NCBI RefSeq assembly: GCF_003334255.1
Contig: NZ_QOWU01000056.1
Reading direction: 5' to 3' (one strand)
DNA from: Escherichia coli
Lineage (GTDB): Bacteria; Pseudomonadota; Gammaproteobacteria; Enterobacterales; Enterobacteriaceae
Length of the DNA: 38,759 bases
Shown here: positions 4,232-38,759 of the stretch, in pieces
Position numbering within the stretch: the first letter of the stretch is position 1
Layout of the letters: every line of letters starts with the position of its first letter
Notes under the pieces: model-generated
Databases searched by the model: none
Told to the model about the DNA's origin: nothing
The model's input: only the letters and a program-made list of their open reading frames with translations
Translations under genes and position numbers: made by a program

Positions 4232-4356
4232 ATTCGGGATGTCCATAAAATGCGCCACCGTGTTAGGGTGGCGCGTGCCCTGCTTTTCTTTATATTACAC
4301 GTTCATCTGTCGATGACGTATTTATGTCACCATCAGGTCATACAACCTGATTAAAA

Positions 4357-5247
4357 CTACTGCTTAACAACCAGTTTCAGATCAACCGGATACTTAGCCT
4401 GAACTTTCTCGCCTTTCAGCACTTTATCTGCGGTTTCGACGCCTTTCGCGCCAATCTGATCGGGTAGCTGAGCGATAGTCGCTGCTAGTTTGCCATCATT
4501 CACCGCTTTTTCGCCATCCGGTGTACCGTCAAATCCGACGACCATCACATCCGATTTACCGGCAGTTTGCAGTGCGCGCAGCGCGCCCAGCGCCATTTCA
4601 TCATTCTGCGCGAATACAGCCTGAACATCCGGATGAGCGGTCAACAGGTTCTGCATTACGTTCAAACCTTTAGTGCGATCAAAATCTGCTGGCTGGCTGG
4701 CAAGAACATTAAACTTGTGAGCAGCAACGGCCTGCTGGAAGCCTTCGCCACGTTCACGGGCTGCGGATGTACCAGCAATGCCTTGCAGCTCGATAACTTT
4801 GGCACCTTCACCCGCTTTCTTCGCGATGTAATCACCAGCGATTTTGCCGCCCAGTACGTTATCAGAAGCAATGTGGCTCACCACTTCACCTTTCGTTGCC
4901 TGGCGGTCAAGAGTGATAACCGGGATGTTCGCCTGGTTAGCCATCTTCACAGCATTACCCACTGCGTCGGAGTCGGTCGGGTTAATCAGCAGAATTTTTG
5001 TGCCGCGAACGGTTAAGTCCTGCACGTTCGCCAGCTCTTTCGCCGGGTTGTTCTGGGAGTCCAGCACCACCAGGTTATAGCCAAGTTTATCCGCCTCTTT
5101 CTGCGCGCCATCTTTCAGCGATACAAAGAACGGGTTGTTAAGCGTGGAGACCACCAGCGCGATGGTGTCTTTTGCCATCGCATTCGCACTGACGGTGGCG
5201 CTTAGCGCAACAGCGGAAACCAGGGTAGCCAGTTTTTTCATGTTCAT
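4357..5247 (-). CDS. rbsB: ribose ABC transporter periplasmic binding protein
   Basis: 296 aa starting [23 protein letters not shown] (signal peptide); ORF track has a 2-codon upstream extension. Confidence 0.93.
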
Positions 5248-15529: not shown

Positions 15530-15805
15530 ATCTACTGTGGATAACTCTGTCAGGAAGCTTGGATCAACCGGTAGTTATCCAAAGAACAACTGTTGTTCAG
15601 TTTTTGAGTTGTGTATAACCCCTCATTCTGATCCCAGCTTATACGGTCCAGGATCACCGATCATTCACAGTTAATGATCCTTTCCAGGTTGTTGATCTTA
15701 AAAGCCGGATCCTTGTTATCCACAGGGCAGTGCGATCCTAATAAGAGATCACAATAGAACAGATCTCTAAATAAATAGATCTTCTTTTTAATACCCAGGA
15801 TCCCA
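15530..15805. other. oriC: chromosomal replication origin oriC
   Basis: DnaA boxes R4 (15536..15544, TGTGGATAA), R3 (15575..15583, TTATCCAAA), R2 (15610..15618, TGTGTATAA), R5/M (15661..15669, TCATTCACA), R1 (15716..15724, TTATCCACA); three AT-rich 13-mers at 15738..15750, 15753..15765, 15769..15781; ~14 GATC sites in ~290 bp; BamHI site 15798..15803; mioC/gidA flanks. Confidence 0.97.
15738..15795. repeat. oriC DNA-unwinding element: three tandem 13-mers (GATCTnTTnTTTT family, here on minus strand) plus AT cluster
   Basis: CTAATAAGAGATC / AATAGAACAGATC / AAATAAATAGATC read directly from the sequence. Confidence 0.9.
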
Positions 15806-23259: not shown

Positions 23260-25532
<2,273 letters not shown>

Positions 25533-26028: not shown

Positions 26029-26324
26029 GTGTGACCCGTCCTGAATAGCGTTCACATAGATCCTGCTGATATAAAACCCCCCTGTTTTCCTGTTTATTCA
26101 TTGATCGAAATAAGAGCAAAAACATCCACCTGACGCTTAAATTAAGGTACTGCCTTAATTTTCTGCAGACAAAAGGCGTGACGATGGTCGAAAATGGCGC
26201 TTTCGTCAGCGGGGATAATCCGTTATTGAACAATTTATCCTCTGTCCATTTCACGATGAAAAAAATGTAGTTTTTTCAAGGTGAAGCGGTTTAAATTCGT
26301 TCTCAAATTACAGTCAGGACGCGT

Positions 26325-27695
26325 ATGTTGAATAATGCTATGAGCGTAGTGATCCTTGCCGCAGGCAAAGGCACGCGCATGTATTCCGATCTTCCGAAAG
26401 TGCTGCATACCCTTGCCGGGAAAGCGATGGTTCAGCATGTCATTGATGCTGCGAATGAATTAGGCGCAGCGCACGTTCACCTGGTGTACGGTCACGGCGG
26501 CGATCTGCTAAAACAGGCGCTGAAAGACGACAACCTTAACTGGGTGCTTCAGGCAGAGCAGCTGGGTACGGGTCATGCAATGCAGCAGGCCGCACCTTTC
26601 TTTGCCGATGATGAAGACATTTTAATGCTCTACGGCGACGTGCCGCTGATCTCTGTCGAAACACTCCAGCGTCTGCGTGATGCTAAACCGCAGGGTGGCA
26701 TTGGTCTGCTGACGGTGAAACTGGATGATCCGACCGGTTATGGACGTATCACCCGTGAAAACGGCAAAGTTACCGGCATTGTTGAGCACAAAGATGCCAC
26801 CGACGAGCAGCGTCAGATTCAGGAGATCAACACCGGCATTCTGATTGCCAACGGCGCAGATATGAAACGCTGGCTGGCGAAGCTGACCAACAATAATGCT
26901 CAGGGCGAATACTACATCACCGACATTATTGCGCTGGCGTATCAGGAAGGGCGTGAAATCGTCGCCGTTCATCCGCAACGTTTAAGCGAAGTAGAAGGCG
27001 TGAATAACCGCCTGCAACTCTCCCGTCTGGAGCGTGTTTATCAGTCCGAACAGGCTGAAAAACTGCTGTTAGCAGGCGTTATGCTGCGCGATCCAGCGCG
27101 TTTTGATCTGCGTGGTACGCTAACTCACGGGCGCGATGTTGAAATTGATACTAACGTTATCATCGAGGGCAACGTGACTCTCGGTCATCGCGTGAAAATT
27201 GGCACCGGTTGCGTGATTAAAAACAGCGTGATTGGCGATGATTGCGAAATCAGTCCGTATACCGTTGTGGAAGATGCGAATCTGGCAGCGGCCTGTACCA
27301 TTGGCCCGTTTGCCCGTTTGCGTCCTGGTGCTGAGTTGCTGGAAGGTGCTCACGTCGGTAACTTCGTTGAGATGAAAAAAGCGCGTCTGGGTAAAGGCTC
27401 GAAAGCTGGTCATCTGACTTACCTGGGCGATGCGGAAATTGGCGATAACGTTAACATCGGCGCGGGAACCATTACCTGCAACTACGATGGTGCGAATAAA
27501 TTTAAGACCATTATCGGCGACGATGTGTTTGTTGGTTCCGACACTCAGCTGGTGGCCCCGGTAACAGTAGGCAAAGGCGCGACCATTGCTGCGGGTACAA
27601 CTGTGACGCGTAATGTCGGCGAAAATGCATTAGCTATCAGCCGTGTGCCGCAGACTCAGAAAGAAGGCTGGCGTCGTCCGGTAAAGAAAAAGTGA
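26325..27695 (+). CDS. glmU: bifunctional GlcNAc-1-P uridyltransferase / GlcN-1-P acetyltransferase
   Basis: 456-aa ORF; N-terminal nucleotidyltransferase motif (LAAGKGTRM) and C-terminal hexapeptide-repeat region. Confidence 0.97.
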
Positions 27696-27856
27696 TTCTG
27701 GCCGGCTAACCCGGTCACATGGGATGAGGAGATAACATAATCTCCCTCCCACAAGCAGTAACTATAAAAATAACCCCACTCTCTACAAGGCTCGGGGCGC
27801 CCGAAAAAACGGGCATACAGGTTGACCGACAACGATATAAATCGGAATCAAAAACT
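27696..27856 (+). promoter_or_regulatory. glmU-glmS intergenic region: site of glmUS mRNA processing and sRNA (GlmZ)-dependent activation of glmS translation
   Basis: Position only; the function is established knowledge for E. coli, not derived from the sequence. Confidence 0.5.
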
Positions 27857-29686
27857 ATGTGTGGAATTGTTGGCGCGATCGCGCAACGTGATGTAGCAGA
27901 AATCCTTCTTGAAGGTTTACGTCGTCTGGAATACCGCGGATATGACTCTGCCGGTCTGGCCGTTGTTGATGCAGAAGGTCATATGACCCGCCTGCGTCGC
28001 CTCGGTAAAGTCCAGATGCTGGCACAGGCAGCGGAAGAACATCCTCTGCATGGCGGCACTGGTATTGCTCACACTCGCTGGGCGACCCACGGTGAACCTT
28101 CAGAAGTGAATGCGCATCCGCATGTTTCTGAACACATTGTGGTGGTGCATAACGGCATCATCGAAAACCATGAACCGCTGCGTGAAGAGCTAAAAGCGCG
28201 TGGCTATACCTTCGTTTCTGAAACCGACACCGAAGTGATTGCCCATCTGGTGAACTGGGAGCTGAAACAAGGCGGGACTCTGCGTGAGGCCGTTCTGCGT
28301 GCTATCCCGCAGCTGCGTGGTGCGTACGGTACAGTGATCATGGACTCCCGTCACCCGGATACCCTGCTGGCGGCACGTTCTGGTAGTCCGCTGGTGATTG
28401 GCCTGGGGATGGGCGAAAACTTTATCGCTTCTGACCAGCTGGCGCTGTTGCCGGTGACCCGTCGCTTTATCTTCCTTGAAGAGGGCGATATTGCGGAAAT
28501 CACTCGCCGTTCGGTAAACATCTTCGATAAAACTGGCGCGGAAGTAAAACGTCAGGATATCGAATCCAATCTGCAATATGACGCGGGCGATAAAGGCATT
28601 TACCGTCACTACATGCAGAAAGAGATCTACGAACAGCCGAACGCGATCAAAAACACCCTTACCGGACGCATCAGCCACGGTCAGGTTGATTTAAGCGAGC
28701 TGGGACCGAACGCCGACGAACTGCTGTCGAAGGTTGAGCATATTCAGATCCTCGCCTGTGGTACTTCTTATAACTCCGGTATGGTTTCCCGCTACTGGTT
28801 TGAATCGCTAGCAGGTATTCCGTGCGACGTCGAAATCGCCTCTGAATTCCGCTATCGCAAATCTGCCGTGCGTCGTAACAGCCTGATGATCACCTTGTCA
28901 CAGTCTGGCGAAACCGCGGATACCCTGGCTGGCCTGCGTCTGTCGAAAGAGCTGGGTTACCTTGGTTCACTGGCAATCTGTAACGTTCCGGGTTCTTCTC
29001 TGGTGCGCGAATCCGATCTGGCGCTAATGACCAACGCGGGTACAGAAATCGGCGTGGCATCCACTAAAGCATTCACCACTCAGTTAACTGTGCTGTTGAT
29101 GCTGGTGGCGAAGCTGTCTCGCCTGAAAGGTCTGGATGCCTCCATTGAACATGACATCGTGCATGGTCTGCAGGCGCTGCCGAGCCGTATTGAGCAGATG
29201 CTGTCTCAGGACAAACGCATTGAAGCGCTGGCAGAAGATTTCTCTGACAAACATCACGCGCTGTTCCTGGGCCGTGGCGATCAGTACCCAATCGCGCTGG
29301 AAGGCGCATTGAAGTTGAAAGAGATCTCTTACATTCACGCTGAAGCCTACGCTGCTGGCGAACTGAAACACGGTCCGCTGGCGCTAATTGATGCCGATAT
29401 GCCGGTTATTGTTGTTGCACCGAACAACGAATTGCTGGAAAAACTGAAATCCAACATTGAAGAAGTTCGCGCGCGTGGCGGTCAGTTGTATGTCTTCGCC
29501 GATCAGGATGCGGGTTTTGTAAGTAGCGATAACATGCACATCATCGAGATGCCGCATGTGGAAGAGGTGATTGCACCGATCTTCTACACCGTTCCGCTGC
29601 AGCTGCTGGCTTACCATGTCGCGCTGATCAAAGGCACCGACGTTGACCAGCCGCGTAACCTGGCAAAATCGGTTACGGTTGAGTAA
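27857..29686 (+). CDS. glmS: glutamine--fructose-6-phosphate aminotransferase
   Basis: 609-aa ORF starting MCGIVGAI (Ntn-hydrolase Cys after Met removal); ends ...AKSVTVE. Confidence 0.98.
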
Positions 29687-29692
29687 TAAATG

Positions 29693-29722
29693 GATGCCCT
29701 GCGTAAGCGGGGCATTTTTCTT
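29693..29722 (+). terminator. rho-independent terminator after glmS
   Basis: Stem ATGCCCTG / CGGGGCAT followed by a T-run. Confidence 0.7.

Positions 29723-29981: not shown

Positions 29982-31040
<1,059 letters not shown>

Positions 31041-34867: not shown

Positions 34868-38759
<3,892 letters not shown>

Follow-up and report, generated by a model that had tools for sequence, protein, structure and literature searches.

The glmU-glmS spacer of Escherichia coli as the GlmZ-activated leader of glmS

The short spacer between glmU and glmS raises the question of how it contributes to glmS expression, and in particular whether it is the mRNA leader on which the small RNA GlmZ acts in Escherichia coli. 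We hold with very high confidence that it is the GlmZ-activated glmS leader, working by an anti-antisense mechanism. Four points rest on the present analysis: the spacer is identical to that of K-12, E. coli genomes carry a near-identical glmZ, the leader pairs with GlmZ in co-folds, and its fold masks the ribosome-binding site in part. RNase E cleavage, dependence on Hfq, the compensatory mutations and translation in vitro come from published experiments on an identical sequence. Activation of glmS by GlmZ is already known, and nothing new was found beyond one conserved hairpin, SL3.

The glmUS locus, its processing and glmZ

The window (the whole stretch of DNA analysed, 38,759 nt) contains the glmU open reading frame at 26325..27695, ending in the stop codon TGA at 27693-27695, and the glmS open reading frame at 27857..29686. 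The leader sits between the two genes in the glmUS operon, with the following features.

27696..27856, + strand: glmU-glmS spacer, the glmS 5' leader, exactly 161 nt
27857..27859, + strand: glmS start codon (open reading frame list and RefSeq annotation)

An earlier note on this DNA had described a 161-bp spacer directly 5' of glmS, and both its coordinates and its gene names were borne out by the open reading frames and the RefSeq annotation, which also places the same sequence between glmU and glmS in other E. coli genomes. Of 5426 complete E. coli genomes, 5425 have a match of at least 95% identity to a 361-nt query with the spacer at its centre, and genes annotated glmU and glmS flank it in every case. 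The spacer and 6451 nt around it show no difference from E. coli K-12 MG1655, and over 38,682 aligned nt the window as a whole has 99.72% identity with K-12 3902766-3941524 (reverse complement). Apart from four, the differences are confined to the pst/bgl end, past position 31,000 of the window. The window therefore has the same sequence, genes and 161-nt spacer length as the K-12 glmUS region in which this control was described (Kalamorz 2007; Urban and Vogel 2008; Göpel, Khan and Görke 2014); the residues that pair with GlmZ, the RNase E site and the Hfq motifs are shared as well.

Other features of the window were recorded in passing. Its final 77 nt (38683-38759) do not align to K-12 bglB and match the end of an IS1 element (median copy number 10 per genome), which indicates an IS1 insertion in bglB of this strain. 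By K-12 annotation, oriC lies at 15550-15781 between mioC and mnmG, and the sRNA RbsZ lies at 4247-4480 (- strand), overlapping the rbsB 3' end; RbsZ was unreported by the Rfam gathering-threshold scan of the window. A strong intrinsic terminator with an 11-bp stem and a T-run stands at 29692-29717, right behind the glmS stop codon, in an area that we take to be the attTn7 region.

The glmZ gene had been said to be elsewhere, and the same Rfam scan found no glmZ match in the 38.7-kb window. The sole hit was a full-length match (188 bits) to the enterobacterial sRNA STnc410 at 26084-26241 (- strand), in the atpC-glmU intergenic region and antisense to the glmUS promoter/leader area. As a positive control, the scan recovered GlmZ (RF00083, 218 bits) and GlmY (RF00128, 146 bits) at their own K-12 loci, and the negative result for glmZ in the window is therefore meaningful. 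In K-12, glmZ is located between aslA and hemY, approximately 73 kb from glmS. The 207-nt gene is present with at least 99% identity in 5425 of 5426 E. coli genomes, and CP060083, which of the complete genomes is nearest to the window, has a 100% identical copy at the expected hemY-aslA position. Judged from this closest genome and the near-universal identity, glmZ is near-certainly present in the genome from which the window comes.

Upstream of the GlmZ site, the spacer and its 5' border contain a processing site, a candidate Hfq site and two hairpins.

27693..27695, + strand: main RNase E cleavage at the glmU stop codon, between AAAAAGUGA and UUCU (literature-mapped on identical sequence)
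27699..27717, + strand: SL1, hairpin just 3' of the cleavage site
27720..27751, + strand: SL2, GA-rich/CU-rich hairpin (from folds)
27766..27774, + strand: A-rich tract AAA-AAU-AAC, candidate (ARN)3 site for the Hfq distal face (read from sequence)

The mapped cleavage sequence is present in the window, and the cleavage itself is known from published work: the joint glmUS transcript is cut by RNase E at the stop codon of glmU (Joanny 2007, PMC1885654; Salmonella cDNA 5' ends; review), which generates the 5' end of the monocistronic glmS mRNA. Minor 5' ends were mapped between CACAU and GGG (27720/27721; band b) and in a GC-rich stretch (Joanny 2007, PMC1885654). The glmU stop codon is TGA in the window and K-12 and TAA in divergent E. 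coli strains (L007-L011), so the cleavage site tolerates both. In the five divergent E. coli strains compared, spacer substitutions cluster in SL1 and one or two adjoin the hairpin SL4 (below); the stretch from 27805 to the AUG is unchanged, and the final 75 nt of the spacer show no variation.

Hfq binds the glmS leader with a Kd of ~30 nM, and two (ARN)x motifs are footprinted, one of them essential for activation (Salim 2012). Two candidate tracts of this kind lie upstream of the pairing site in the window: AAA-AAU-AAC, whose column identity is 0.77 across 27 Enterobacterales, and a second A-run, the A6 loop of SL4. These are candidates for ARN-1 and ARN-2 of Salim 2012, with a putative assignment as to which is which.

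GlmZ pairing and the ribosome-binding site

The leader (-161..+21) was co-folded with full-length GlmZ, giving 7 + 8 bp of intermolecular pairing that match the published pairs exactly. The earlier note had proposed base-pairing with GlmZ, to be abandoned if the leader had no complementarity to it, and the duplex was recovered at the following positions.

27817..27823, + strand: GlmZ half-site 1, ACAGGUU (glmS -40..-34), pairing with GlmZ 163-169 (co-fold)
27828..27835, + strand: GlmZ half-site 2, GACAACGA (glmS -29..-22), pairing with GlmZ 150-157 (co-fold)

The glmS mRNA from about -41 to -19 is thus complementary to the single-stranded GlmZ linker (nt 150-157 and 163-169). Activation is lost with the leader mutations G-36C and C-27G and regained with GlmZ C165G and G155C (Urban and Vogel 2008, PMC2267818). 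These bases correspond to window positions 27821 (G-36) and 27830 (C-27), both inside the predicted duplex, and GlmZ has G at position 155 and C at 165, as stated by the same authors.

The pairing was also evaluated with an accessibility-corrected scan (IntaRNA-like, own code), in which the hybridisation energy is combined with the cost of opening both RNAs, over the entire leader (-161..+40) and the entire GlmZ. The published duplex ranked first at -8.8 kcal/mol (-19.2 for hybridisation, +7.8 for opening the leader and +2.6 for opening GlmZ), with the runner-up at -4.9 kcal/mol. RNAduplex on the full leader and full GlmZ returned an unrealistic 160-nt duplex because intramolecular structure is left out of its model, and it was discarded for the co-fold and the accessibility-corrected scan.

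By raw energy the site is unremarkable. At -19.2 kcal/mol, its duplex with the GlmZ linker falls among the best 0.5% of 32-nt windows, and 43 independent places on both strands of the window (77 kb) are equal or better, so complementarity to GlmZ alone is not decisive. The strongest match by raw energy (-28.3 kcal/mol over 20 bp, G-U pairs included; ~25170-25198, - strand) is antisense to atpD and was judged to be a chance match. Those 43 places are the argument for regarding the glmS match too as a coincidence, in a spacer that serves only as a processing or stability region. Against it, compensatory mutations at exactly these bases restore activation, GlmZ and Hfq activate glmS translation ~15-fold in vitro (Urban and Vogel 2008, PMC2267818), and the site comes first after accessibility correction and has conserved cores. 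A chance match is already refuted by the published genetics, and we give it practically no weight. What marks the site out is its rank among initiation regions (it is the best GlmZ-linker match among the window's 34 translation-initiation regions), its accessibility rank, its position in a hairpin arm, its conservation and the published genetics.

The leader was then considered for a structure that hides the ribosome-binding site, which the earlier note had proposed to look for by folding. A partly masking hairpin was found in the minimum free energy (MFE) fold.

27815..27862, + strand: imperfect inhibitory hairpin, 5' arm 27815-27836 and 3' arm 27841-27862 (MFE fold)
27843..27847, + strand: Shine-Dalgarno (SD) region CGGAA, with GGA at -13..-11 (27844-27846; read from sequence)

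The 5' arm overlaps the GlmZ site and the 3' arm spans the SD and the AUG, so that, as predicted, the leader has a hairpin that partially hides both the SD and the start codon. Leader folding is somewhat better than that of shuffled sequence (z = -2.5). When 27817-27835 was held single-stranded to imitate bound GlmZ, the mean unpaired probability of -20..+13 rose from 0.50 to 0.70-0.73 across three construct lengths, and the predicted unpaired probability of the SD is ~0.6 even when GlmZ is absent. In these models, masking of the ribosome-binding site is partial and covers the start codon besides the SD, which fits with basal glmS translation being enough for growth when GlmZ is lacking (Göpel et al. 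review).

The earlier note had described the region as cleaved, with GlmZ unmasking the ribosome-binding site. The published pairing and the hairpin uphold the unmasking, with two refinements: the masking is partial and includes the AUG, and the cut does not depend on GlmZ. Cleavage by RNase E at the stop codon of glmU is described as constitutive and independent of GlmZ, which acts later, on the monocistronic glmS mRNA.

Conservation of the leader and the SL3 hairpin

Leaders from other bacteria were collected by scanning species-representative genomes with a degenerate pattern for glmS codons 1-13, which yielded 120 loci (34 Enterobacterales and 86 other Proteobacteria); the pattern lies within the coding sequence, and the leader is therefore unbiased by the search. 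Enterobacterales leaders share the order A-rich tract, SL3, SL4, CAGG(U), variable linker, GAC(A)(A/U)C, optional SL5, GGA and AUG. Two of these elements are located in the window as follows.

27774..27797, + strand: SL3, CCCCACUCUCUACAAGGCUCGGGG (CCCCACTCTCTACAAGGCTCGGGG), hairpin with a 4-bp stem and a 16-nt loop (glmS -83..-60; from conservation)
27799..27814, + strand: SL4, GCCCG-AAAAAA-CGGGC, with an A-rich loop (per-species folds)

A motif resembling the GlmZ site is present in 29 of 34 Enterobacterales and in 3 of 86 others, in agreement with a published remark that the GlmZ/glmS pairing is apparently conserved. The half-site 1 core CAGG is invariant or nearly so across genera, the half-site 2 core GAC(A) is conserved, and the SD GGA is present in all of the aligned leaders (27/27). 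Mean column identities across these 27 Enterobacterales are 0.68 and 0.74 for the two GlmZ half-sites, 0.79 for the SD, 0.44 for SL4 and 0.93 for SL3.

SL5 is an extra covarying hairpin that separates the GACA(A/U)C motif from the SD in most Enterobacterales other than Escherichia (L028, L038, L041, L035, L083 and others); Escherichia has none. SL4 is missing in at least one genome (L047). On a MAFFT alignment, in which indels throw SL4 and SL5 out of register, RNAalifold recovers no stem but that of SL3, and per-species folds were used instead. In these folds the SL4 and SL5 stems have many sequences that differ between genera yet remain complementary, which indicates RNA structure. For the genera with SL5, simple folding predicted no hairpin joining the GlmZ site to the SD. 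Outside Escherichia, keeping the putative site blocked hardly altered the accessibility of the ribosome-binding site, in leaders modelled on their own. The picture of SD unmasking is thus computationally clear only for Escherichia, as far as these models go.

Conserved blocks could also act as DNA, either as a promoter for glmS within the spacer or as an operator bound by a protein. In several genera -10-like hexamers are found in an AT-rich block just before SL3 (TATAAT in Pantoea), one promoter-like match is found at 27714-27741, and a glmS-specific promoter was not fully excluded by Joanny 2007 (PMC1885654). That study found no promoter in the spacer, and the 3 promoter-like matches found compare with 4.2 expected from shuffled sequence, nothing above chance. 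The compensatory changes in the SL4 and SL5 stems are typical of RNA structure, and in Arsenophonus the SL3 stem is altered on both sides (CCCAA...UUGGG). A role of the conserved part as DNA is accordingly considered very improbable.

SL3 is the best-conserved part of the leader, above the GlmZ site. The 24-mer is unchanged in 20 genomes from several families (Enterobacter, Klebsiella, Pluralibacter, Siccibacter, Shimwellia, Pantoea, Dickeya and Edwardsiella) and occurs with 1-7 edits in 13 further genomes (Yersinia, Serratia, Photorhabdus, Xenorhabdus, Providencia, Morganella, Arsenophonus and others). Among the genomes sampled, 33 of the 34 Enterobacterales have the SL3 core and none of the 86 other bacteria does, and SL3 is confined to the same clade as GlmY and GlmZ. 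In two loci, a MAG (L127) and Erwinia persicina (L107), SL3 is at about -215 and not at about -95, with ~120 nt inserted before the GlmZ site, so the spacing from SL3 to the GlmZ site is variable. No Rfam family matched SL3 at the gathering score or at E up to 10. The literal SL3 sequence was not found in the searchable literature, nor was any description or function of SL3; Joanny 2007 (PMC1885654) mentions that the spacer has 'some sequence homology' in close relatives.

Several identities for SL3 were tried and rejected. It is not a repeated element, as each E. coli genome has one copy. The CsrA SELEX consensus is RUACARGGAUGU. SL3 does not qualify as a CsrA site, its GG being unconserved (Morganella, Xenorhabdus) and its loop having GGC instead of GGA. 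Nor does it mimic the GlmZ site, since the additional A in the ACAAGG form breaks the pairing. Complementarity of the SL3 loop to GlmZ and GlmY was no better than that of shuffled loops (fraction 0.22).

The loop hexamer UCUACA (27782-27787) is complementary to UGUGGA of glmS codons 2-3 (27860-27865), a match with a rough chance estimate of ~0.03 before correction for multiple testing. The sequence TGTGGAATT, glmS codons 2-4 TGT-GGA-ATT (27860-27868), is the same in 34 of 34 Enterobacterales including synonymous sites, and codons 6-10 vary. The TGT-GGA-ATT codons are also common in Vibrio and Alteromonadales, both of which have no SL3, and the support that they give to loop-codon pairing is therefore weak. 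Pairing of the SL3 loop with codons 2-3, perhaps in repression or in GlmZ-driven remodelling, is offered as a weak idea.

Conservation suggests that SL3 is functional, in a role that the published model does not explain. Tentatively, it may be an uncharacterised functional RNA element such as a platform for a protein or Hfq, a 5' stabiliser or a loop-to-start pseudoknot; we regard this as possible and well short of probable.

The conserved blocks and hairpins, SL3 above all, also recall a cis-acting riboswitch or ribozyme that senses glucosamine-6-phosphate (GlcN6P) directly, and the Gram-positive glmS ribozyme (RF00234) is a close functional analogue, with post-transcriptional GlcN6P feedback on the same enzyme via the mRNA leader. 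That ribozyme is a self-cleaving, metabolite-bound RNA whose mechanism is unrelated to that of the glmS leader, and the spacer contains no sequence or structure match to it, or to any other Rfam family, at the gathering score or at E up to 10. In-line probing of the E. coli spacer with Glc6P or GlcN6P gave no structural change or self-cleavage (personal communication in Joanny 2007, PMC1885654), and the literature assigns GlcN6P sensing to RapZ (PMC7073468). Direct sensing by the spacer is largely refuted, with only the faintest likelihood left to it.

Mechanism and related systems

Under the preferred reading, that of a leader activated by GlmZ, 27815-27836 of the glmS mRNA pairs imperfectly with 27841-27862 and partly hides the SD and AUG. 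When GlcN6P is scarce, full-length GlmZ builds up, and its linker (nt 150-157 and 163-169) pairs with 27828-27835 and 27817-27823, respectively, aided by Hfq on the upstream A-rich (ARN)x motifs. The freed ribosome-binding site then allows more translation, and the mRNA is stabilised ('anti-antisense').

The rpoS leader (DsrA, RprA, ArcZ) is the paradigm of the anti-antisense mechanism: there too the ribosome-binding site is hidden in a leader hairpin whose 5' arm is bound by an sRNA together with Hfq, and upstream (ARN)x Hfq sites are required. It differs in its gene and its sRNAs, and the glmS leader arises from RNase E processing of an operon and not from a promoter. GlmZ, unlike the sRNAs of the rpoS leader, is controlled by regulated decay (RapZ, GlmY) and not by transcription.

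The role of SL3, once found, would complete the mechanism, and it could explain regulation in the genera with no predicted simple SD-masking hairpin. The control of glmS is a textbook example both of activation by an sRNA and of genes in one operon being expressed differently, and with GlmZ control recorded the annotation gains a level of regulation. The supply of GlcN6P for peptidoglycan and LPS synthesis is set by the GlmZ/GlmY/RapZ circuit, which also confers intrinsic resistance to GlmS inhibitors.
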